This document shows, in pieces, positions 22,057-57,560 of a DNA stretch of 64,000 bases. The stretch's first letter is position 1. Each line of letters opens with the position of its first letter. The position numbers and the translations under genes are program-made. Below the pieces are notes generated by a model. The model worked only from the letters and a program-made list of their open reading frames with translations. It made no database searches and was not told where the DNA came from. This stretch comes from a virus. The stretch lies in IMG/VR virus record IMGVR_UViG_3300045988_059940, positions 38,650 to 102,649 of that record; one strand, written 5' to 3'.

Positions 22057-22082
22057 GTATTATTTTATATTAATTTATATAG

Positions 22083-22170
22083 ACGCCCCAGTAGGAGTCG
22101 AACCTACCCTGTCACCTTCAGAAGATACGCGGTTTTAGAGACCGCCAGTGCCACCGTACACCATAGGGCG
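22083..22170 (-). tRNA. Amber suppressor tRNA, anticodon CUA, class II (long variable arm)
   Basis: Hand fold: CGCCCTA / TG / GTG..CAC D-arm / GCGGT-CTCTAAA-ACCGC / 21-nt variable arm / GTAGG-TTCGACT-CCTAC / TGGGGCG / T73. The anticodon loop is C-U-CUA-A-A. Confidence 0.85.
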
Positions 22171-32060: not shown

Positions 32061-32295
32061 GAAATACTATGTTGTATGTAACAGTTTCTTTGGAGTCCCA
32101 AAAAACAAATATACCACATACATTATTACACAAAATAACTGTATAACATTTGCAGTAGCAATGTTAAATAGAAGTGGTATATGGTATGAGAAAGGTACAC
32201 TTAAAACAACAGCAGATGATGATTGGAACTATATATCTCTACATAAAAATAAAGTAGAAATTACCAAGGAACAATGGCTAAGAATATTTAAATAA
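32053..32295 (+). CDS. Hypothetical protein (80 aa)
   Basis: Track ORF that overlaps its upstream neighbour. Confidence 0.55.
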   Translation: MNKKYYVVCNSFFGVPKNKYTTYIITQNNCITFAVAMLNRSGIWYEKGTLKTTADDDWNYISLHKNKVEITKEQWLRIFK

Positions 32296-32352
32296 GGATT
32301 TATTTTTACCATATAAAATTTGAAAGATTGGAGACAGATATTAAAAACCTTA

Positions 32353-32385
32353 ATACCACGATTCGTGAGAACCGTGGTATTTTTA
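32353..32385 (+). terminator. Rho-independent terminator
   Basis: ATACCACG-loop-CGTGGTAT followed by TTTTT. Confidence 0.7.
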
Positions 32386-32395
32386 AAGCATTACC

Positions 32396-32700
32396 TAATC
32401 CAGCCACACCACAGTGACAGTCCTAAGCCTGTTAAATGGAGAAGGGGTAATTGTAAACAACTCTAAATTGAATATGGGTAATGAGCCTACGCCCCGTTTA
32501 GATAGTTTACAGCTCACCTAACGAGCAGCTCACTCAAAGTATATGTGGAATACTGAGAGTAAAAGAGGCGGCCGATAACCAAATCCGAGTTTATATATTT
32601 AGAAAAGCTTTATCAGCAAAACGAACATTATTGTGCACAATAATGTTTATGTGTAGTTTAGTCCAACAATATGTTTCTGCTCTGGAAGTTTTTACACATT
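32396..32700 (+). ncRNA. Structured element A (copy 1 of a roughly 300-nt family)
   Basis: It shares with element B, in the same order, TAATC(C/T)AGCCA, then GTCCTAAGCC, then GAGAAGGGG(G)TAA, then the hairpin TCATAGGTATTATGA. There is no ORF. Confidence 0.4.
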
Positions 32701-32773
32701 TCTCCCTTAGCTCAATCTAGTCAGAGCATCATAGGTATTATGAAAGATTCTGGTGCAAATCCAGAAGGGAGAA
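32701..32773 (+). ncRNA. tRNA-like element with a shortened (15-nt) anticodon arm
   Basis: The acceptor (TCTCCCT/AGGGAGA) is perfect, and the D-arm (GCTC/GAGC) and T-arm (TCTGG-TGCAAAT-CCAGA) are present. The anticodon arm is TCATA-GGTAT-TATGA, with a 5-nt loop, or 4 bp plus AGGTATT. Confidence 0.5.
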
Positions 32774-32814
32774 CGAACGACGTTTTTAAATTTTGCATAA
32801 GAAAAAGGATTATG

Positions 32815-32945
32815 TTTCGCTAAGTAACCTGTGAAGGCGAAAGAAATAGGAATTGATACGAAATTTCGCTGAGTAATCTGCAAAGATGAAAAGATTACGG
32901 AATTTGGAAAGCGTAAATCTGTGAAGACAAGCGCTTTTGTTTTTA
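32815..32945 (+). repeat. Three tandem hairpins with related loop sequences
   Basis: The stems are TTTCGC...GCGAAA, AAATTTCG..GTAATCT...AGATTAC..CGGAATTT and AAGCG...CGCTT followed by a T-run. The loops carry CCTGTGAAG, TCTGCAAAG and TCTGTGAAG. Confidence 0.5.
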
Positions 32946-32954
32946 CGTTTATCT

Positions 32955-33253
32955 TAATCTAGCCAGTCCCAATGTCGGTCCTAAGCCCGAAATGCGTTCA
33001 TTACGTATAATAGAGAAGGGGGTAAACGCACACCAAAAATGGCGTAATTAACCAAGGTGTGTCTCTCAGTCCAGACGTAAGAGAGTAATCCGCTCATAGT
33101 GGGAATATGAGTGAAAAAATACAATTAAGTAAGTAGTTGTAGAAAGAATTAAAATAAGTGCTTACTCACAAAACCGAAAATAATGTGTTTGGGTTTATCG
33201 TAGCGCGCAAAGAAGCGGATTTCAGAACACATAATCGTCATAGGTATTATGAC
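32955..33253 (+). ncRNA. Structured element B (copy 2 of the family)
   Basis: It has the same ordered motifs as element A (32955, 32978, 33012, hairpin 33237-33253) plus many local helices such as CACACC/GGTGTG, CTCTC/GAGAG and CTCATA/TATGAG. Confidence 0.4.
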
Positions 33254-33861
33254 AATCTTTCTCTCTTAGTTTAAATAATAAAACATCTATAAGATAGGAA
33301 ATATTGAAACACCTATTAATAGAAGATATTGGCGTAAATCCAATAGAGAGAACTATTTTATTCAAATATAGCAGTAACTATTATACCAAAAACTTAATAA
33401 CTTTCCAAGTCATTGAGGACACCAGTTTCTTACACCCAGTAAGTTTTAGGTGTAAAATGCAATTCAAGACACTAATCACGTCTAGAATCCATCTTTGTTT
33501 GAATTGATTACTCAAACGGAGAAATACCCGTAAAACGGAGCTCAACTACAAAATACGCTCGTAGTTGCTGAGTATAGGTAGAATTGTGTTTAGTAATTGA
33601 GTACGAGGATACGAAGTTACGTGACACTCTGGAAAGACAGAGAGTATGCTTAATTGCGCAAGTAAGTATACTAGCACTATCGTATAACATATAGATTACG
33701 CTCCGTGCTGTCGGAGAAATGTAGGCTTATTACCTACTAGTGCACTAATTGTTGTCAGCCCCTGTGTGAATAATAGTAACACTTATAGGAACTGTCTGGT
33801 GTGGTCACGAAAGTGGCAATTTAATCATAGCTTAATTAAATCCTGCTATGGGGTAAATATT

Positions 33862-34317
33862 ATGGCAATTAAATGTTTTAAACATGAAAACAATTCTAAG
33901 GCTTACATTGACAGTAAACACATCTGCTATGTAAGAGAATGGTCAGACGGAGAAACAGAAATAGCCACAGTAGATGGAGGTTCAACCTATGTGAAACAAA
34001 GTGTAGAGTCTGTTGTAAGTTGGTGGAAGAAACAACAAGAAACGGACGTAAAAGAGCCTAAGTTCAAAGAGGTTGACGATGTTTATACAATTAGCTTGGC
34101 TAACATAAACAATAGAAGGTATCACGTTGTGGAGGCGCTCAAAGAAGTGCTTAACTTTCACTTAGATGAAAAAAGAAGTTTAGGTGAAAGCAGCAGACTA
34201 ACCGTACTTATAACAAGAAACAAAGTAGAAGCTATGGAGGTATGGGCAAAACTAAAAGCAAGATTGTTCTGTGTCGGTGTCAATGTAATTCTTGAAATAG
34301 ATTCAGTAAGAGAATAG
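33862..34317 (+). CDS. Protein with a ribosomal bL12 (L7/L12) C-terminal-domain-like module
   Basis: The segment ...RYHVVEALKEVLNFHLDEKRSL...KVEAMEVWAKLKARL..GVNVILE matches the bL12 CTD pattern. The track ORF starts at GTG 33766, but ATG 33862 is preferred. The terminal codon is TAG. Confidence 0.45.
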   Translation: MAIKCFKHENNSKAYIDSKHICYVREWSDGETEIATVDGGSTYVKQSVESVVSWWKKQQETDVKEPKFKEVDDVYTISLANINNRRYHVVEALKEVLNFHLDEKRSLGESSRLTVLITRNKVEAMEVWAKLKARLFCVGVNVILEIDSVRE

Positions 34318-38446: not shown

Positions 38447-38878
38447 ATGAAACATTTATTTAGTGCAGTAATAGCATTTATTTTAATCGTTGCTGCATTG
38501 TGTGGAATTATGAGCCTGACTTCTTGTCGAGGTGAATCGCCACAAGAAAAACAAAAAGAGTTTGCAAAACAGTATGAACTGTATGCAAACCCAGAGTTCT
38601 CTTCTTTTGAAGAAGCACTCGACTATCAAGCTGCTGACATTAAGCAGTTTAGAGAGGACTCTGTATTTCGATGTATACCCGAAGAGTCATTGGAAAAAGT
38701 TATCATCGTATTACAGAACACTGGTGCCAAACTGTCAAAAAGTACAATTGCCGAACAATACTTAGAAGGCAAGAAGATATTTGACAACCTCGAACCGAAG
38801 ATAGAACACAAACAAGTCCAAGAGGAGATTGACAGTATCGCATCGTTACAACTAACAACAACTTCAAAAGATGAATAG
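38447..38878 (+). CDS. Lipoprotein (143 aa)
   Basis: The signal peptide carries the lipobox LTSC, and the start context is ATTATCAAAATTATG. The terminal codon is TAG. Confidence 0.6.
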   Translation: MKHLFSAVIAFILIVAALCGIMSLTSCRGESPQEKQKEFAKQYELYANPEFSSFEEALDYQAADIKQFREDSVFRCIPEESLEKVIIVLQNTGAKLSKSTIAEQYLEGKKIFDNLEPKIEHKQVQEEIDSIASLQLTTTSKDE

Positions 38879-40401: not shown

Positions 40402-40474
40402 GCACCAGTAGTTCAATGGATAGAGCAGGAGTTTTCTAAACTCTTAGTTGTGGGTTCGAGTCCTACCTGGTGTA
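40402..40474 (+). tRNA. tRNA-Arg (UCU)
   Basis: GCACCAG / GTTC..GAGC / GGAGT-TTTCTAA-ACTCT / GTGGG-TTCGAGT-CCTAC / CTGGTGT-A. Confidence 0.9.
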
Positions 40475-40490
40475 CTAAAACGTAATCAAT

Positions 40491-41314: not shown

Positions 41315-41401
41315 GGTATAAATTATTCGTTTAGCTTATATCTACTAAAAGCGGTTATCGTGTCCGTAATGCCAGTGACAGGCTAATAAACGATTTTGAT
41401 T

Positions 41402-41959
41402 ATGAAAAATCCTAGAATCACAGAATCAGAGATTTTGCTAATCAGAGAAGCTCAACAGGGTAGTCAACTTGCTTTTAGTAAGTTGTTTGAGAAATATAAA
41501 GGCTTTGTAGAAAGCATTTTATTTTCTTACATTAAGGATATGGATGAAGCGAAAGATATTGCTAACATCGTATTCCTTAAAGTCTACCACAAACTTTCAA
41601 AATTCACAGATTATTCTTCTTTTGGAGGATGGCTGAGAATTTTAACAAACCGTACAGCAATAGATTATCTACGTAGTATCCGATTGAAACAACGTGCCGA
41701 AGTTGAAACAGACCGACTAACTGCTTCAACTCAAATCTCTTCAAGTGAAGACGAACTAGTCAATCGTTTGGCATATAAAAAGATATTAGAGGAATTTGAA
41801 AAGTTCCCCGTGCATATGAAACGTATATTGGAATTATATTATGTAGAAAATTTAACAGTTGTACAAATTAGTGAAGCTCTGTGTGTTCCTACTGGAACTA
41901 TTAAGTCGATTTTATCAAGAACGCGCAAGCAAATTCAAAGTTCAATTAATAAAATTTAA
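41402..41959 (+). CDS. ECF-type sigma-70 family RNA polymerase sigma factor
   Basis: Region 2 (AFSKLFEKYKGFVESILFSYIKDMDEAKDIANIVFLKVY...GWLRILTNRTAIDYLR) and region 4 (LELYYVENLTVVQISEALCVPTGTIKSILSRTRKQI) are both recognisable. Confidence 0.8.
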   Translation: MKNPRITESEILLIREAQQGSQLAFSKLFEKYKGFVESILFSYIKDMDEAKDIANIVFLKVYHKLSKFTDYSSFGGWLRILTNRTAIDYLRSIRLKQRAEVETDRLTASTQISSSEDELVNRLAYKKILEEFEKFPVHMKRILELYYVENLTVVQISEALCVPTGTIKSILSRTRKQIQSSINKI

Positions 41960-42442: not shown

Positions 42443-43852
42443 ATGAGTAAGAAACAAAAGAAGGCTAACAGCCAAAAGGTAGTAAACAAAGTAGAAAAGA
42501 AGGTAGAGATGAAAATCGTACCTCCTGCACCTGAAACTAAAGAAGAAACCAAGGTTGAAGAAGCTAAGGTTAAAGAGGTTAAACCTGTAATCAATGTTAT
42601 CGACACGGGTCAGCTGAAAGAGAATCTCAACCCTCAAACGTCAGGACTTAGTCCAGACAAACAAGTTGACCTACTGGCTATGATGGACAGAACGTTCCGT
42701 CAAGACAAGAATGCAGCTGTTCGTTATCATATGAGCCAAGAGGCCATCGATATGATTAACGAAGTAAGTGCTATTGGTCAGGTTGCAGTTCTTATGAACG
42801 AGGTTGTTAACGGTACGAGCAATTTTGCTGTACGTATGCGTGTTGGTACGCTTGACAACATTCGTAAGATTGCTCCAATGGTTGGTGTAGAGATTGTTGA
42901 AAACGCTCTACCTGCACCAGTTGACGGAGTAGTAGAAGTACAATCGAAAGCCTTGAAGGTTTCTGAGGAAGCAAAGAAAGCTTTGAAGGCTGAGAAAAAG
43001 GCAGTAGAAAGCAAAGTGCTTGACCCGAAGGACATAAAGACGAAAGAAGAGCTGACAACAGCTTTGTTGCAGTTCCTGTCTAAGCGTAACAATATTCACG
43101 AAAACATTCAGCAAGCAATTGCCTTTATGCGTGAATACAAGAACGTAAACGCAACTGATGAAACTAGGGAGGCTGTAAAACAGCTGACTAGAATCGAGTT
43201 GCTCAAAGAAGTTGTAGCAACTGTTGAGGAGGCGCCTATCGTATTGAGCGGTATTGGCAACTTTCTTTACACTACCACTTCGACTTCGAAATCCCCTATT
43301 TCGGCGTTCTGTCATTTTAGGAACACAACCCTCATCAAGGAGACAGGAGAGCCTACTTTGGATGATGCAGAAGTGGCTGATTATGTCAAGATTCTCGTAA
43401 CTTGGGCATGCGAAATCAAGAAGAGACAATCCACTGCTGAAATCAAGAAGATAGAGGACAATCTCAAAGTTCTCCAAAAGGACAAGAAGAACAACAAGGT
43501 TGCTATCGCCGAACAGGAGAAGAAGATTGAGACTCAGAAAAACAATATCGTACACTTCGATGGCGTAATTGACTATGTTACGAACGCATCAGAAGAGTTC
43601 GTTACAAGGTTGATTCCTGAGTACGAAAAGAAGGAAATGATGTTTGTAAAAACATTCAACGTGATTGCAAGCAGCTATTATTCAGACGAAGAAATTAAGC
43701 AAGCTAAGCTGGCTTCTTTGAAGAAGAACGTTGAGCAACGCGCTGGTATCATTACCAACTTATTCCGTTCACCGCTTTCGCAGATGATTAATTACAGCGA
43801 AAGCAACATCACCGAGCTAGAAAAGGTAGAAAATGAACCTGAAAAAAACTAG
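42443..43852 (+). CDS. Hypothetical K/E-rich protein (469 aa)
   Basis: Track ORF with start context ATTATCAAAATG. Its terminal codon is TAG, followed immediately by a hairpin. Confidence 0.7.
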   Translation: MSKKQKKANSQKVVNKVEKKVEMKIVPPAPETKEETKVEEAKVKEVKPVINVIDTGQLKENLNPQTSGLSPDKQVDLLAMMDRTFRQDKNAAVRYHMSQEAIDMINEVSAIGQVAVLMNEVVNGTSNFAVRMRVGTLDNIRKIAPMVGVEIVENALPAPVDGVVEVQSKALKVSEEAKKALKAEKKAVESKVLDPKDIKTKEELTTALLQFLSKRNNIHENIQQAIAFMREYKNVNATDETREAVKQLTRIELLKEVVATVEEAPIVLSGIGNFLYTTTSTSKSPISAFCHFRNTTLIKETGEPTLDDAEVADYVKILVTWACEIKKRQSTAEIKKIEDNLKVLQKDKKNNKVAIAEQEKKIETQKNNIVHFDGVIDYVTNASEEFVTRLIPEYEKKEMMFVKTFNVIASSYYSDEEIKQAKLASLKKNVEQRAGIITNLFRSPLSQMINYSESNITELEKVENEPEKN

Positions 43853-43855
43853 TTC

Positions 43856-43886
43856 CGACCGATGAGCCAAAAACGTTTATCGGTCG
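43856..43886 (+). terminator. Hairpin directly after TAG 43850-43852
   Basis: CGACCGAT-loop-ATCGGTCG forms an 8-bp stem. Confidence 0.5.
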
Positions 43887-43928
43887 AATAAGAGAAGTGT
43901 GGAATAAACTCACCAAATTATCAAAATT

Positions 43929-44333
43929 ATGAAACGCTTTACAACTATCATTTGTAGTATAGCATTTGCCGTATTTGGCGTATGTATTGCAACAGATAAG
44001 ATAGAGGTAGCTACGCAAGAACAAAACGTAGCTTATGCACAGCCGATACCGAACTTCGATTTGGCAAAAGTGCAAGTACCAAAAGACATCCAAATGAGTC
44101 TTTATGCAAAGCAGCTGGAATCTGAGAAAGCTACATCTCAGAAAGTGCCAGAGGTAACTATCGTAGCATCGAAGCGCGTTAAGGAGCGCGTTAGAGTAGT
44201 TCACAAGACTTCGTATGTTCCTGTGCTCTACATAGCAACTCCTAAAAAAGAATCTTCCAAGTATCAGTATGATGTACAGCGTGCTGATATTCAAGCTCCT
44301 CCAATTAAAGGAGAGCCAACGTGGGAAGACTGA
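43929..44333 (+). CDS. Membrane-anchored or secreted hypothetical protein (134 aa)
   Basis: N-terminal hydrophobic segment, with start context ATTATCAAAATTATG. Confidence 0.6.
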   Translation: MKRFTTIICSIAFAVFGVCIATDKIEVATQEQNVAYAQPIPNFDLAKVQVPKDIQMSLYAKQLESEKATSQKVPEVTIVASKRVKERVRVVHKTSYVPVLYIATPKKESSKYQYDVQRADIQAPPIKGEPTWED

Positions 44334-44339
44334 TAGTAA

Positions 44340-46480
44340 GACGATTTAGGTCTCATTAGCCAATAATCGCTCAAACATCAAAAAATTTACTTGGTCCGAG
44401 AATATGTTAACCTTCTCAAAAGGCAAGATGTCCGAAAAAGTGTGGACTATCAAAAGGTAGGACGAAAGACAAGATTGGTGTGAAAAGCCAACTTGTATAG
44501 GGGATAGTGACGCATCAAAACCCCTACACGTGTATAAACCAGTTGCAGTCCTTTATGCTGAACTAGGATAATCTTATCGTGGTGTACACGTAAGGAACAG
44601 CACATAAATCACGGCCTTGAAAAATAGATAACCGTGTAAAAGTTGATGCCGTATCGTAGACAATGCTTTTAGATACAAATTGTATTGTAACGTAACACGA
44701 GTTGAATTTATCAATTAGTCAGGACTATAAAGAGGCGCTCTTGTAGTCTTATAGGGGATGGATGTGGATGGTAGTGATGATGAGGTCCAACTCTCATTGA
44801 TAAAGTATCAGTAAGTCGAGCATAGTGTTCATGAGGTCCAAAGTCATTATGAAGGTGCGAAAAAATATGTGGAGTAAAACAATATCGTGAGGATAATGCT
44901 CACGGGGTGTACCGTAACTATGCCGCCTATGTAAGGCCAGTTCCGTGCAACTCGGATGCCTCTCGTCACGCGCGTAGGGGAGTAAGTGGGTAAAACGGCT
45001 GATTTATGGTGATGCATGACCGCCAGGCTTTTGTTGTTTATGCGGGATATAAAAGTGAAACAACCAGGAGAGTGGGGCAGACTCTTAATGCGAAGTAGGG
45101 CTAACAAGCTTGAAGGCTACGCGAAACGAGTGCGCGGACAAACACTGATTTAATATGAATATACCTGGCTAGACGAGGTGAAGATGTAAGTTATTCATAT
45201 AAGATAGATAGAACTAAAAAGCTACTATCCACTACGATGACAACGTTACAGTCAAAAAATGTACGCTTGCATACAATCAAGCCGAACCAAATTAGGTTTA
45301 TCGGTTCCAATGCCATATTGCCAATGGTAGTGAAGACCCATTAACCTTTGATGTAATAAATAATCAAGGTGTATCACTATTATAATAATATCATTATATC
45401 TCTATTGGAGTAATTAAACCAGTATATATGATGTGCATTATGATATATACAAACAAACCAGAGATGAAATAAAAACATCACAAATGAGAGTAAATAACAT
45501 GTTTAACAAAAATAGGTGTCCCCCGATAGGTGCCACTTTCGTTGTAAGAAAGAGCTGAGTCGGAAGCCTGAGTGCCAACCGTGACTTTGAAAAAATTATA
45601 CAGAATAAACTATACAATTTCCGTCTAAGTTTGAACCGCCGAACGTGAATACATTAATAGGTAACCGTGGACGGTAATTGAAGTAGGACAGCAAATCTTT
45701 ATAGATTTATAGAGTAGTTATCCATTAATTGATGGGCAGCAACAACCTAAGTACGTCCTTGCAATAAGGATAGGGAGTTAGTGACTCATTGGTGTACACT
45801 GTCTATGTACATTGATAGGGAATGTTGTGGGTGACAAGAAGCGTGGGTAGGGTTGAAATCCCAAGTATTCGAGCACTTCTCAATGAAAAGCGAGATAAAA
45901 CAAATGAGGAAGCAAAATCCAAGAGAAGAAACAGCCGTAGCATCCGAGATACCCCTTGAAGGCTAGATGGTCCGATAATGAAACGTCGCTATTACGTTAT
46001 AGTATAGCTGAGAGAGGCCTGGTCGCCACCTCGAATAAGAATTGAAAGCACCAGCAACTGAGAAAACTGCAAACAACGATATGACCGATAGTCTTGAAAA
46101 AGACAATGTCGCCATACTTTCGGTGTCGTATACTGACAATGGCAAAAGCACTACGGGTTAGTGTGGAGAGAATTTTTATTAAGTAAGTAACAATTTTTTC
46201 AAAACAATTTTCGTGGGTTAAACTTATAAACAGGGTGTAATGCATTCTGTATGAGTTTTTTATTTAAGAATTTAAATTACAAAATACAAGCACTTGAATG
46301 TGCATTTTCGGCATTTGAAGTTTCAAGTAAACAAATTTAGGCTAAGCTAATCCTACCATTGGATTCCCTTGTATTTGACTTCCATACTACTTGTAGATAG
46401 GATATATAATACATGTTTGTTGAAATAGTAAACGACCTCTCATTAGCACGGTTAAACCGAATCTTATTTTAAACTGAGTG
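44340..46480 (+). ncRNA. Roughly 2.1-kb ORF-free, G+C-enriched, helix-dense region (one or two large ncRNA candidates)
   Basis: No credible ORF on either strand, even when TAG is read through. It has many local stems and an AT-rich break at about 45360-45500, and it ends at the terminator at 46481-46516. Confidence 0.4.
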
Positions 46481-46516
46481 TCGGTGCGTCGAGCCACCGA
46501 GCCTGCACCAATTTTT
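46481..46516 (+). terminator. Terminator-like hairpin with a T-run
   Basis: TCGGTG..CACCGA and GGTGC..GCACC helices followed by AATTTTT. Confidence 0.55.
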
Positions 46517-46574
46517 AATTCCGACTAGCGTTTACGTTAGTTAATCAATAACAATTTCAAAAAGGTAAACAAAA

Positions 46575-47186
46575 ATGGAAAAAATTAATATTAATGCGCT
46601 TGCAAACAATCGCAAGCCACTATCTAACATGGGAGCCCTCTTTGGGTGTCAATACTTCAAGGCTGAATTGCGTGAGCATGACACCAATTTCACTAAGCGT
46701 GAACTACAAACCAAGCAGAACGGCAACATCGACTTGATGCCTAATAGAACAATTCACCGTTATCGTATGACAGACTTTGATGTTGTAAGCATCAACTTCG
46801 TAACCAACCCTGATGGCAGCAATTCTGTTATCTTCAACATGGGAACGGACGATGAGGTTGTGCTGCCTGTTGATAGCAACATGACACAAGTAGGTGAAGT
46901 TAACGAAAACGCACTGAAAGAGTCGTTGCGCGGTGATAACAAGAACGTTATCTTCGCAAACCCTGAGAACTTGGCTGCGATGCTCAATCGCATGAACCAA
47001 GCAGAAATTAACCGAGCCGAAAGCTTGATTAAAGAGCTAGAAACTGCTATTAAGCAAGCTCGTCGGGCAATGGACGAAAACCAGAAGAAGGTTGAAACGT
47101 ACATGTCCCAGATGGTGAACTCTACTCCCGCACCTATGTCGCGAGGAACAGAGGTTAACATTAACATCAAAACGACTGAGGAGTAA
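46575..47186 (+). CDS. Hypothetical protein (203 aa)
   Basis: Track ORF. Confidence 0.65.
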   Translation: MEKININALANNRKPLSNMGALFGCQYFKAELREHDTNFTKRELQTKQNGNIDLMPNRTIHRYRMTDFDVVSINFVTNPDGSNSVIFNMGTDDEVVLPVDSNMTQVGEVNENALKESLRGDNKNVIFANPENLAAMLNRMNQAEINRAESLIKELETAIKQARRAMDENQKKVETYMSQMVNSTPAPMSRGTEVNINIKTTEE

Positions 47187-49931: not shown

Positions 49932-50018
49932 GGAGAAGTGGCAGAGTGGTTAAATGCAACGGTCTTGAAAACCGTCGGTCGGTAATACGGCTCGTAGGTT
50001 CGAATCCTACCTTCTCCG
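49932..50018 (+). tRNA. tRNA-Ser (UGA), class II
   Basis: GGAGAAG / ACGGT-CTTGAAA-ACCGT / 18-nt variable arm / GTAGG-TTCGAAT-CCTAC / CTTCTCC-G73. Confidence 0.9.
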
Positions 50019-50072
50019 CGCAGAGAGACATAAGTCTCAATGTAACATTTAATAAATTCAAACAACAAAAAG

Positions 50073-51090: not shown

Positions 51091-52968
51091 ATGATTATAC
51101 GAAACAAAACAGTCATTACATATGACATTGAAGTTTTCCACAACGTATTTCATTGTACGTGTAAAGATACAGAAACAGGTCAGTTACACTTTTTTGAGTT
51201 AAGTAACAGAAAGAATCAACTAAGAGAATTAGTTGATTTTTTTCGTATTAATACTTATCTATTTTGTGGATATAACAATAAGCATTTTGATGATGTAGTA
51301 ATAAATTATATCATTGATATGATTAATGTAATAGAAACAAAAACTCGATTAAGAGTGGCTGAATCTATTTTTAATCTTTCACAAACAATAATTACGTCTG
51401 AGGAAGATATTAGTCCATTTAAGAAGTGGAAGTATATGTATAATTTTGCTTCTATGGACTTGCTTACAATGCAATTTAGTTCAAAATTACGTGTGGGCTT
51501 AAAGGAAATGCAAGTAACTATGTATTATCCTAACGTAAAAGAATATGCAGGAGATTTTAACGACAACCTGGCAGATTCTGAAATTGACGAAATGATTGCA
51601 TACAACATTAATGATGTTGATTCTACTACGGAGTTATTAAACAGATTAAAATCTGATATAGAATTACGAGAATATATACGACAAGAATATGACATTGATG
51701 CATTGTCTATGGACGGCGTTAAGATTGGTGAGACTTTACTATTGAAAAAGTATTGTGAAGCTACAAATCTAGACCAAGAATATGTGAAAACATTAAGCAG
51801 TCCAATGGATTATATTGCATTAAAAGATGTAATATTACCTATCGTACAATTTAAAAATCCGATTTTAAAAGACGTTCTTGACGAGATGAAAGCCCAAGTT
51901 GTCTACACAAAAGAACGCAAAGGCTATGAGAAGAAGTTTGTTCTCTCAAATGTGTGCTATTCTATTGGAGTAGGAGGAATACATTCCATCCATACTCCTA
52001 GAATCTTCACTCCTAATGCAGATGAATATATTGGACACAGCGATGTAGCATCAATGTATCCGTCCTTTATTATACAGTATGGATGGATACCACAACATTT
52101 AGGTAAAGATTTTTGGCAGGTGTACAGCGCAGTTTACAATGAGCGCATAGAAGCCAAACGTGTCAAACAGAAGTTGAAGGATAAAGTATTAAAGCTTTCC
52201 TTGAACGCTGTTACAGGGAAAATGCAACAAGAGACAAGTTGGATGTACGACCCACTGTCAGTATTTAAAATACGAATTAACGGACAATTAGTTCTGTTGA
52301 TGTTAGTGGAGCGTCTATTAGAGTTAGGTTGTAAGATTGTACAAGTTAACACTGACGGAGTGGTGTATATTGCAAAAAAAGACAAAGCCGAACAAGTAGG
52401 GCAGAGTATTAGAGAAATAGAGCAATTAACACGCTTGTCATTTGAAACAGATAGATACGAAGCGTTTTATCAGTACGCAATCAATGATTATTTCGGTGTC
52501 GTTGATGGTTTCTCTCAATCTAGGGACGAGAAACTGATAGAAAAGAAAGGTATGTTTATCACCAACACCAACCTTGGGAAAGGGTTAACTCCAACCGTAA
52601 TACCAAAGGCGGTGATAAACTATTTTGTAAACAAAGAACCAGTGTCAGAATTTATTAAGAAAGATGAAAACATCTGTGACTTTCTTATGGCACAAAAATG
52701 CGACAGAAAGTTTAAAGTTATACATGGAGAAAAGCCTGTACAACGTATTAATAGATTTTACGCATCAACGAATGACTATTCGTTATTCAAAGTTTCACCA
52801 GAAGGAAAAGAGATTAATATGCTCACAAAATCTGGTGTAACAATCTTGAACCAATTAGATAGTAAGCCGATAGGGGAGAGACATCTAAACTATCTATATT
52901 ATATTAGTGAAGCGAAGAAAATTATTCACGCTTTTGAATGTAGACAGTTAGATTTATTTAATGATTAA
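51091..52968 (+). CDS. Family B DNA polymerase
   Basis: ExoI is YDIEVF, ExoII is YNNKHFDDVVI and ExoIII is YNINDVDST. Motif A is SDVASMYPS, motif B is KLSLNAVTGKM and motif C is VNTDGV. There is no internal TAG. Confidence 0.85.
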   Translation: MIIRNKTVITYDIEVFHNVFHCTCKDTETGQLHFFELSNRKNQLRELVDFFRINTYLFCGYNNKHFDDVVINYIIDMINVIETKTRLRVAESIFNLSQTIITSEEDISPFKKWKYMYNFASMDLLTMQFSSKLRVGLKEMQVTMYYPNVKEYAGDFNDNLADSEIDEMIAYNINDVDSTTELLNRLKSDIELREYIRQEYDIDALSMDGVKIGETLLLKKYCEATNLDQEYVKTLSSPMDYIALKDVILPIVQFKNPILKDVLDEMKAQVVYTKERKGYEKKFVLSNVCYSIGVGGIHSIHTPRIFTPNADEYIGHSDVASMYPSFIIQYGWIPQHLGKDFWQVYSAVYNERIEAKRVKQKLKDKVLKLSLNAVTGKMQQETSWMYDPLSVFKIRINGQLVLLMLVERLLELGCKIVQVNTDGVVYIAKKDKAEQVGQSIREIEQLTRLSFETDRYEAFYQYAINDYFGVVDGFSQSRDEKLIEKKGMFITNTNLGKGLTPTVIPKAVINYFVNKEPVSEFIKKDENICDFLMAQKCDRKFKVIHGEKPVQRINRFYASTNDYSLFKVSPEGKEINMLTKSGVTILNQLDSKPIGERHLNYLYYISEAKKIIHAFECRQLDLFND

Positions 52969-56989: not shown

Positions 56990-57433
56990 CAACATGCAGT
57001 CTGGTGTAATTAACCCAAGTTAGAATGTGTACAATTCGATGCGGGTGGAGTATGAAAAGAAAATAAGTAGAAGTAGAAAAACTCGCGAATAAGTATATTT
57101 TAAAAGTTTTCAAAGTAATATCTTGCAGACCATCTATGAGGATGGAGGTTGGAGATAACAAGTTTATCTACTGCATTATGGGGGTATATGGCTTTGATTT
57201 TAGACGGAAGATATGTAAGCATGTAGAGCTTGTAACAGCTCTTAAATATAGTTACAATAAAATTAACCGACAACGTTATTTTGTCAATTGCAGCTTAATT
57301 GAATAATAGTAAATTTGGCGCACATTACACAGAACCACTCAAAGTAACTGTATATGTAATGTAATTATTTGGGATTCAAAATGTTTATTCATAATTTTAA
57401 ACATGTAGAAAGCATATAATAACTCTGAAAGAC

Positions 57434-57458
57434 GTGGGTTCGAATCCCACTACCTCCA
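57434..57458 (+). ncRNA. Orphan T-arm plus 3' acceptor strand (tRNA 3' half-like)
   Basis: GTGGG-TTCGAAT-CCCAC-TACCTCC-A. The only candidate 5' partner (GGAGGTT) lies about 290 nt upstream at 57144. Confidence 0.35.
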
Positions 57459-57560
57459 CAAGGCCATTCTTTTGCGTTTTAAGCGCTTAATACAGCTCTC
57501 TAACACATTTCATCACCTCCCAGTGTTGAGTGGCTTAGAACAAAAAAGAATGGCTAATTT

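Follow-up and report, generated by a model that had tools for sequence, protein, structure and literature searches.

What does a phage keep in 2.2 kb of its genome in which no gene can be found? The question is raised by a 64,000-nucleotide (nt) stretch of viral DNA (the window; positions 38,650 to 102,649 of IMG/VR record IMGVR_UViG_3300045988_059940), in which two plus-strand genes, one ending at 44333 and the next starting at 46575, enclose the gap 44334-46574. The window derives from a crAss-like phage (Crassvirales, Suoliviridae) that is closest to the Oafivirinae. In the human gut, Crassvirales are more abundant than any other viruses, and most early and middle genes of Suoliviridae are ORFans. 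An earlier inspection of the window (the original prediction) had proposed that the gap may encode one or more large structured non-coding RNAs. Comparison with related phages agrees with this proposal: substitutions without codon periodicity, frame-breaking indels, a conserved position and dozens of covarying plus-strand helices make the 2.2-kb region almost certainly a structured non-coding RNA locus. The predicted RNA is a plus-strand, multi-domain and pseudoknotted molecule that appears to be under purifying selection and specific to one phage family.

No protein is encoded in the 2.2 kb that separate the two genes. No open reading frame (ORF) longer than 86 amino acids (aa) lies inside the gap, and the three minus-strand ORFs recovered (44847-45107, 45963-46151 and 45997-46245) are exactly those that the original prediction had listed. 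Stop-to-stop frames in the region reach at most 89 aa under genetic code 11, 89 aa with TGA read as sense and 123 aa, on the minus strand, with TAG read as sense, so that the frames are closed even under TAG recoding, as had been stated. The claim that the gap is the longest non-coding stretch of the window likewise holds, as 44346-46568 (2223 nt) is the longest stretch without any frame of at least 100 aa under code 11. For a coding test, the window was aligned with an IMG/VR relative (93% identity over the region), and substitutions by codon position as well as indels were counted. In the flanking genes the substitutions fall on the three codon positions in counts of 13/4/37 (469-aa protein), 3/2/36 (203 aa), 4/7/24 (195 aa) and 6/2/34 (182 aa), and no indels are present. 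The RNA region gives 36/43/25, without codon periodicity, and contains 13 indels (sizes 2, 18, 1, 5, 24, 11, 1, 1, 3, 1, 1, 6 and 2), nine of which are not multiples of three.

Because this genome combines a TAG suppressor with TAG recoding in late genes, genes can be missed by ordinary ORF searches. The suppressor is a tRNA with the anticodon CTA at 22082-22170 on the minus strand, accompanied by four further tRNAs in the window, and it is consistent with reports that Suoliviridae recode TAG in late genes. A protein gene could therefore be imagined that is hidden by unusual decoding, frameshifting or splicing, but its probability is negligible. An alternatively decoded gene, which the original prediction had named as a finding that would speak against it, does not emerge with TAG or TGA as sense; the substitutions are not periodic; and the nine frame-breaking indels distinguish the region from all flanking genes but one. 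Minus-strand “hypothetical proteins” annotated inside the gap of two relatives are not conserved and have no counterpart in the window, and no gene is placed there by independent calls on seven other contigs. Minus-strand or very small “hypothetical proteins” have been deposited within the syntenic gap of PV686213 (locus L001, 3945-4451), NC_055895 (L008, 4195-4677), PP511876 (L009, 4415-6423) and NC_055875 (L252, 11125-11310), the last of which coincides with a match of the 5′-domain RNA model described below. These ORFs are probably spurious gene calls, and the annotation of several deposited genomes would have to be corrected over the locus.

The structure of the RNA is supported by covariation. 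From 89 full-length copies of the locus, 40 representatives with less than 95% identity were retained and aligned by sequence only (L-INS-i). All column pairs were scanned for runs of at least three pairs with at least 85% canonical pairing, and the runs were scored by their extra Watson-Crick pair types. As a control that preserves composition and phylogeny, the search was repeated in parallel register. The scan returns 19 antiparallel helices with a score of at least 4, spread over 44348-46571, compared with none in the parallel control (maximum score 3). In the core (44815-45150), RNAalifold predicts 54 pairs from 12 seed sequences, 32 of them with compensatory changes. A covariance model of the core (R1, about 340 nt) finds exactly one significant match in each of 80 loci (100-352 bits), which is not an independent test because the loci were gathered with a sequence pattern from the core itself. 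In the R1 alignment, 96.5% of the cells are paired (70.9% shuffled, about 40% in slid register) and 47 of 54 pairs show double changes (17-23 in slid register), figures that are inflated because the alignment was fitted to the model.

For the other domains the alignments were not fitted to structure. The 5′ domain (sequence-only alignment A3) is 85.1% paired, compared with 69.4% when shuffled and 48.5% in the best slid register, and 26 of its 30 pairs are compensatory. The corresponding values for the central domain (sequence-only alignment A4) are 89.5%, 79.0% and 54.6%, with 17 of 33 pairs compensatory, and in the 3′ domain compensatory changes are seen in 10 of 12 predicted pairs. G-U cells far outnumber A-C cells in three alignments (383/32, 73/41 and 123/32), which identifies the RNA as the plus strand, on which the surrounding genes also lie. 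Compensatory changes beyond the controls and a G-U excess favoring one strand, the generic marks of a structured non-coding RNA, are both seen here. Compared with the 93%-identical relative, 44934-46334 changes at about 0.02 per site, versus 0.04-0.09 in every flanking gene.

The locus keeps its position in all four subfamilies examined. Thirteen annotated genomes share the gene order of a sigma-like gene, genes for proteins of about 130, 480 and 130 aa, the unannotated gap, and genes for proteins of about 200 and 190 aa. The gap measures 2025-2241 nt in Oafivirinae, 2125, 2152 and 2147 nt in Loutivirinae, 2205 and 1920 nt in Uncouvirinae and 2076 nt in Boorivirinae, that is, about 1.9-2.2 kb in all 13 genomes. 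Conservation in related phages, on which the original prediction had made itself depend, is thus found in the gap position as well as in the covarying helices of the 40 representatives. The 5′-domain model (R2) matches where the syntenic gap begins in three Loutivirinae (75, 69 and 50 bits) and marginally in Boorivirinae cr10_1 (22.8 bits, E 0.003), where the match lies atop a small annotated ORF. R1 gives a weak, full-length match in Loutivirinae cr56_1 (21.8 bits) and collinear fragments only in Uncouvirinae. Homology is backed by collinear conserved strings through Loutivirinae and, in part, Uncouvirinae cr115_1, and end-to-end homology is likely in Uncouvirinae and Boorivirinae.

Searches with the region (blastn) and with the neighboring proteins (tblastn) match only crAss-like Suoliviridae of the subfamily Oafivirinae, in the genera Bohxovirus, Cacepaovirus, Chuhaivirus, Buhlduvirus and Burzaovirus and in an unclassified lemur-gut virus. 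Motif scans used a pattern from the most conserved stretch (45020-45055). The core motif is present in at least 119 IMG/VR contigs (mostly 95-105 kb among the matches listed) and in at least 120 metagenome contigs, including rumen metagenomes (many are short among the matches listed). Five contigs match in 185,579 prokaryotic species genomes, all of them in bins of metagenome-assembled genomes (MAGs), and two are phage-sized at about 101 kb. Across the sequence collections scanned, the locus appears to be confined to Suoliviridae-type crAss-like phages. The two ~101-kb RNA-bearing contigs (L255 and L259) are binned in MAGs labelled Segatella copri, which gives a weak hint at the host. Eight contigs of 3-8 kb from the Joint Genome Institute samples Ga0255059 to Ga0255062 also carry the core motif; if the contigs are metatranscriptomic they would be direct evidence of expression.

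The locus consists of three structured blocks, 44336-45150 (5′ domain, variable connector and core), 45500-45996 (central domain) and 46290-46460 (3′ domain), that are separated by two weakly structured linkers (Table 1). The original prediction had tentatively divided the region at an AT-rich break into two units of about 1 kb. The break is real (G+C 0.285 at 45300-45499), but three domains and two linkers describe the region better. Similarly, the predicted G+C enrichment holds against most of the window (0.386 versus about 0.30-0.36) but not against the immediately adjacent genes (0.39-0.45). Within the region 44800-45100 alone stands out (0.47-0.515), and the purine-rich string that had been pointed out is present at 44974-44998.

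The 5′ hairpin has four of four pairs doubly changed in each of its two helices (alignment A3), and its loop UCUCAUUAG is near-invariant (39 of 40 representatives). Ten bases, TCTCATTAGC, are shared on the plus strand by this loop (44351-44360) and the loop of the 3′ hairpin (46438-46447), 2087 nt apart, and occur in exactly two copies in the window. The 5′ copy is near-universal; about half of the representatives carry the 3′ copy, whose short stem shows covariation on visual inspection. The motif was considered as a general signal of this genome, which was rejected on the grounds of its two exact copies. The UAG in the loop was also considered as a docking site for the suppressor-tRNA anticodon, an idea that was dropped because in several lineages the 5′ loop reads UAA and the 3′ loop CAUAAGC or CGUAAGC. 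The remainder of the 5′ domain contains the invariant single strands GAGAAUAUGU and CAAAAGGUAGGAUG. The following connector is the fastest-evolving part of the locus, with the top substitution and indel density in the comparison with the 93%-identical relative.

The most conserved stretch of the core spans 45020-45057 (CCGCCAGGCUUU...CGGGAUAUAAAAGU). At the 3′ end of the core, an H-type pseudoknot is supported. Its crossing helix CGCG/CGCG is 98.8% paired, with 11 compensatory cells in two of four pairs, and the AGUG/CACU helix covaries strongly. A second candidate pseudoknot, CCGC 45020-23 with GCGG 45042-45, is invariant and partly fixed by the search pattern. Linker 1 accumulates few changes between close relatives (2-3 substitutions per 100 nt), and its AT-rich stretch is moderately conserved between genera. 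The central domain carries the invariant strings GAUGGGCAGC, GUGGGUGACAAG and UUCGAUAAUGAAACG, and the 3′ domain the conserved string CAUUCAAAGCUUU.

Downstream of the 3′ domain, the 5′ untranslated region (UTR) of the gene for the 203-aa protein forms a nested hairpin. Its outer helix 46529-35/46565-71 has the joint-highest score in the covariation scan (12, tied with 45068-72/45082-86). In nearly all relatives examined, the hairpin surrounds the ribosome-binding region with the invariant AUCAAAAAGG, and the UTR motif is also exact in Uncouvirinae cr115_1. The motif ATCAAAAAGG is not repeated at other genes of this genome. The hairpin 46529-46571 is probably a separate translational control element.

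Table 1. Features of the RNA locus and of its gene neighborhood (positions in the window; paired segments are separated by a slash).
Feature	Position	Strand	Description
Sigma-70-like gene	41396-41959		Upstream of the gap
469-aa ORFan	42443-43852		Upstream of the gap
134-aa ORFan	43929-44333		Directly upstream of the gap
5′ hairpin	44336-44368	+	Two-part stem 44337-40/44365-68 and 44347-50/44360-63; starts 3 nt past the upstream stop codon
5′ domain, rest	44391-44524	+	Long-range helix 44391-97/44460-66 around hairpin 44410-13/44421-24; hairpins 44473-79/44487-93 and 44499-503/44520-24
Variable connector	44562-44809	+	Helices 44562-66/44582-86 and 44672-76/44805-09; 5/5 compensatory pairs each (RNAalifold, 40 representatives)
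Core domain	44812-45150	+	About 340 nt, at least 10 helices, multi-branch junction
Core helices (1)	44821-23/44855-57, 44828-35/44843-53, 44885-91/44899-905, 44906-11/44919-24, 44925-27/44997-99	+	
Core helices (2)	44941-45/44953-57, 44960-63/44974-77, 45033-39/45058-64, 45068-73/45081-86, 45125-32/45143-50	+	
H-type pseudoknot, 3′ end of core	45120-45146	+	CGCG 45120-23/CGCG 45133-36 crossing AGUG 45129-32/CACU 45143-46
Linker 1	45150-45500	+	Poorly structured; one covarying hairpin 45238-42/45250-54; holds AT-rich 45300-45499
Central domain (1)	45500-45996	+	Begins with a conserved island, hairpin 45536-40/45548-52
Central domain (2)	45735-37/45934-36, 45739-43/45824-28, 45793-98/45806-11, 45826-34/45869-77	+	Helices; loop CUGUCU in 45793-98/45806-11
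Central domain (3)	45846-53/45860-68, 45937-44/45966-73, 45984-86/45994-96	+	Helices
Linker 2	46010-46290	+	Sequence and length variable; no RNAalifold consensus pairs; holds terminator-like hairpin 46230-46250 and U-run
3′ domain	46290-46460	+	Hairpins 46290-93/46300-03, 46339-41/46366-68, 46349-53/46361-65; loop of last hairpin is TCTCATTAGC
Weak terminator-like hairpin	46481-46516	+	Imperfect, -11.6 kcal/mol, z -0.70, followed by AAUUUUU
Nested 5′ UTR hairpin of 203-aa gene	46529-46571	+	46529-35/46565-71 and inner hairpin; just before ATG 46575
Downstream genes			ORFans of 203 (ATG at 46575), 195, 182 and 284 aa, then two tRNA-Ser genes
DNA polymerase gene	51091-52968		4.5 kb downstream of the gap

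How might such an RNA be produced and act? As a whole, the account of a structured RNA locus that is co-transcribed with its operon and acts in trans as a stable RNA is considered moderately probable. The RNA would be transcribed together with the surrounding early and middle genes of the replication module, as the first hairpin leaves no space for a promoter ahead of it and the searches for promoters and terminators turned up no conserved one. Promoter scans (sigma-70 and the Bacteroidota -7 element TAnnTTTG) yield chance-level results and no conserved internal promoter. The terminator that the original prediction had placed at 46481-46516 turns out to be a weak hairpin, at whose position relatives have different hairpins, mostly without a U-run. 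A better hairpin with a U-run lies at 46230-46265 (hairpin -9 kcal/mol, z -2.1), and 13 of the 40 representatives have one at this place. After transcription, the RNA would act in its own right, by analogy with GOLLD and ROOL, as a stable “ornate” RNA in trans during infection, alone or with phage or host proteins, and would not be a cis-regulatory leader. The invariant unpaired strings, together with the pseudoknots, would give the RNA a compact tertiary fold that offers surfaces for binding or catalysis. A single unit may have its two ends marked by the nearby UCYCAUUAGC hairpin loops, for instance as sites of processing, end protection or protein binding.

More tentatively, the whole ~2.1 kb can be regarded as one RNA, a hallmark of Suoliviridae that would constitute an RNA-only or RNA-protein machine with the shared UCYCAUUAGC loops joining or marking its ends. 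Such a machine could act during infection as a ribozyme, as a multimeric cage or scaffold, or as a decoy for a host factor or defense system, among other roles. If it is one RNA, no larger structured non-coding RNA would be known from a phage, cellular ribosomal RNAs aside.

The main rival explanation, itself rather doubtful, dissolves the locus into a cluster. Here, one or two separate structured RNAs (5′ domain with core; central domain) would be followed by a cis-regulatory leader (3′ domain with UTR hairpin) for the operon of the 203-aa and 195-aa genes. A cluster would agree with the two linkers that lack a consensus structure, with the hairpin and U-run just before the 3′ domain in this phage and 13 of 40 relatives, and with the clearly separate covarying hairpin that occludes the ribosome-binding region of the downstream gene. 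Long-range helices between domains are also nearly absent, the sole one (45780-83/46357-60) being borderline. However, the total length is kept at 1.9-2.2 kb in 13 of 13 annotated genomes from four subfamilies, and between close relatives the linkers evolve as slowly as the domains. The loop motif stands at both ends and nowhere else in 64 kb, and the internal terminator is not conserved in 27 of 40 lineages, with no conserved internal promoter seen.

The gap could also serve as a replication origin, at which a folded transcript primes or activates DNA synthesis as in ColE1 RNA II or in T7/T4-type origins and the AT-rich stretch is the unwinding element. The location in the replication-gene module, upstream of the DNA polymerase gene, fits this function, as does the non-coding, AT-rich 45300-45499, and no origin is described for these phages in PMC7886860 and PMC10136315. 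An origin is nevertheless improbable. The repeat and iteron search in the region finds only short two-copy repeats at chance level and no repeat arrays, and the GC skew does not change at the region but shifts with gene orientation (at ~24 kb and ~62 kb). The AT-rich stretch is conserved between genera only moderately, and dozens of covarying helices with a pseudoknot over 2 kb far exceed the needs of a primer RNA.

Several points weigh against the preferred account of a co-transcribed RNA that acts in trans. Minimum-free-energy z-scores (200-nt sliding windows, both strands) show no structure signal: the plus-strand mean of the region is an ordinary -0.58, and the flanking genes are lower at -1.76. 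The term “helix-dense” used in the original prediction is therefore not borne out, and the structural evidence, being comparative, was invisible to it. Between genera, conservation of the entire region does not exceed that of its neighbors (DNA identity of 0.46-0.56 over the whole region and 0.34-0.69 in the neighbors); higher conservation holds only for the conserved islands, and between close relatives. The trans-acting mode is drawn by analogy only, and the locus may give rise to one 2.1-kb RNA or to three shorter ones. In 13 of 40 lineages a terminator-like hairpin precedes the 3′ domain, which hints that this domain may be a separate leader, and the 3′ copy of the loop motif is missing from about half of the lineages. 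Finally, Suoliviridae have never been cultured (PMC10136315).

Does the RNA belong to a known family? The original prediction could not assign one, and the Rfam check of the window and six relatives leads to the same result. No Rfam 15 family matches the region at its gathering score when the whole window is scanned, and with permissive filters none is found at E <= 1 in the window region or at E <= 5 in the gaps of six relatives. The GOLLD model is absent among matches to E = 10 at 44200-46700 and to E = 5 in the six homologous loci. The models of ROOL, group I and II introns, RNase P RNA, transfer-messenger RNA (tmRNA), 6S RNA, HEARO and OLE likewise find no match in the region or the six relatives.

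These searches bear on the idea of a diverged or degenerate known large ribozyme or intron (group I/II, RNase P-like, GOLLD, ROOL or HEARO) that is too distant for Rfam. Suoliviridae core genes do carry group I introns (PMC10136315), and the pseudoknots and invariant unpaired strings are ribozyme-like. Yet such an origin is very improbable, given the empty searches under permissive filters in both the window region and the relatives. The upstream ORF ends with TGA TAG TAA (44331-44339), and an ATG at 46575 opens the downstream gene, which also has a conserved 5′ UTR hairpin to itself. The two flanking ORFs are separate genes, one closed by its stop codon and the other opened by its start codon; no exons are left to be joined, and the region is not an intron. 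No intron-encoded protein, reverse transcriptase or other ORF lies inside, and 2.1 kb far exceeds the length of ORF-less introns.

Up to ~24 kb the genes of the window lie on the minus strand; between ~24 and ~62 kb they form a plus-strand block, which includes the RNA locus. It is not adjacent to tRNAs, the nearest of which are found at 40402-40475 (3.9 kb upstream) and 49932-50019 (3.4 kb downstream). The neighboring proteins yield no clue to the function of the RNA. Six of them have no match in Pfam, PHROGs and NCBIfam, save statistically weak sub-threshold ones for the 203-aa protein. The 469-aa protein has no match in a sequence search of the PDB, and its all-helical AlphaFold model (predicted local distance difference test score of 75) has no Foldseek match in the PDB. 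According to homologue searches, both flanking proteins are crAss-only ORFans, and the 203-aa and 195-aa proteins are not paralogues.

Additional features are observed elsewhere in the window. Folding-energy z-scores of -4 to -5, far below any value inside the region, occur on the plus strand at 42800-42999 and 43700-44199, which span coding sequence and the short intergenic gap 43853-43928. A phage-encoded tmRNA is located at 57180-57461 (Rfam, 95 bits). In other Suoliviridae the tmRNA lies upstream of the sigma-like gene (L251, 5919-6280; L252, 5536-5921), which indicates that its position has moved within the family. A RAGATH-12 RNA motif at 33774-33855 (89 bits; gathering score 75) overlaps the start of the ORF 33766-34317. 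The second-longest stretch without a frame of at least 100 aa (code 11) is 32061-33687 (1627 nt), which is mostly closed when TAG is read as sense, leaving 32790-33380 open.

A conserved and strongly selected RNA of ~2 kb would be more than twice the size of GOLLD. Its retention across at least four subfamilies suggests a function that is worth 2% of a densely packed genome. The RNA is a concrete, synthesizable target for cryo-electron microscopy and biochemistry and adds a family that Rfam lacks. The covariance models provide a specific marker of the phage family in metagenomes and metatranscriptomes, data that could show the timing and abundance of the RNA.

The element is not described in the searchable literature, including the crAss-like genome study PMC7886860, the Crassvirales review PMC10136315 and two large structured-RNA surveys. 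The intergenic motifs reported by Fremin and Bhatt in 2023 (PMC10690425) come from the same data source, IMG/VR, and are based on the same kind of evidence, covariation. These 8,495 motifs average 67 nt, and the main text of that study mentions neither crAss-like phages nor a kilobase-scale element; single hairpins of the present element may be among the motifs. With ColE1 RNA II and transcription-activated origins, the element shares a non-coding folded RNA in a replication module with an adjoining AT-rich stretch, although transcription is inferred here. It differs from ColE1 RNA II in that it has no iterons, is four times longer and is far more elaborate.

The closest parallels are GOLLD and ROOL, phage-encoded ornate RNAs of unknown function that form RNA-only cages (PMC12286853). 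Like the present RNA, GOLLD is phage-encoded and very large, has many covariation-supported helices and pseudoknots, joins a well-conserved part to less conserved parts and linkers, and is without a known partner protein or function (PMC12286853). In contrast, the GOLLD model of Rfam shows no match to the present RNA in sequence or structure, and GOLLD has “many members exceeding 800 nt,” compared with ~2.1 kb for the present locus. GOLLD is often found beside a tRNA island, unlike this locus with its nearest tRNAs several kilobases away, and the present host range is that of crAss-like phages of Bacteroidota-rich gut communities. ROOL resembles the present RNA in its occurrence in phages and prophages of gut and rumen, its complex pseudoknotted fold and its unknown function (PMC12286853), and relatives of the present RNA are also found in rumen metagenomes. 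ROOL differs in that its Rfam model does not match, in its length of ~580-660 nt, which the present element exceeds 3-4 times, and in its location near tRNA islands, whereas the present element sits between ORFan genes of the replication module. Both GOLLD and ROOL assemble into homo-oligomeric RNA-only nanocages. The large ornate phage RNA is a known kind of molecule; this family, its ~2.1-kb size and its genomic setting appear to be new.

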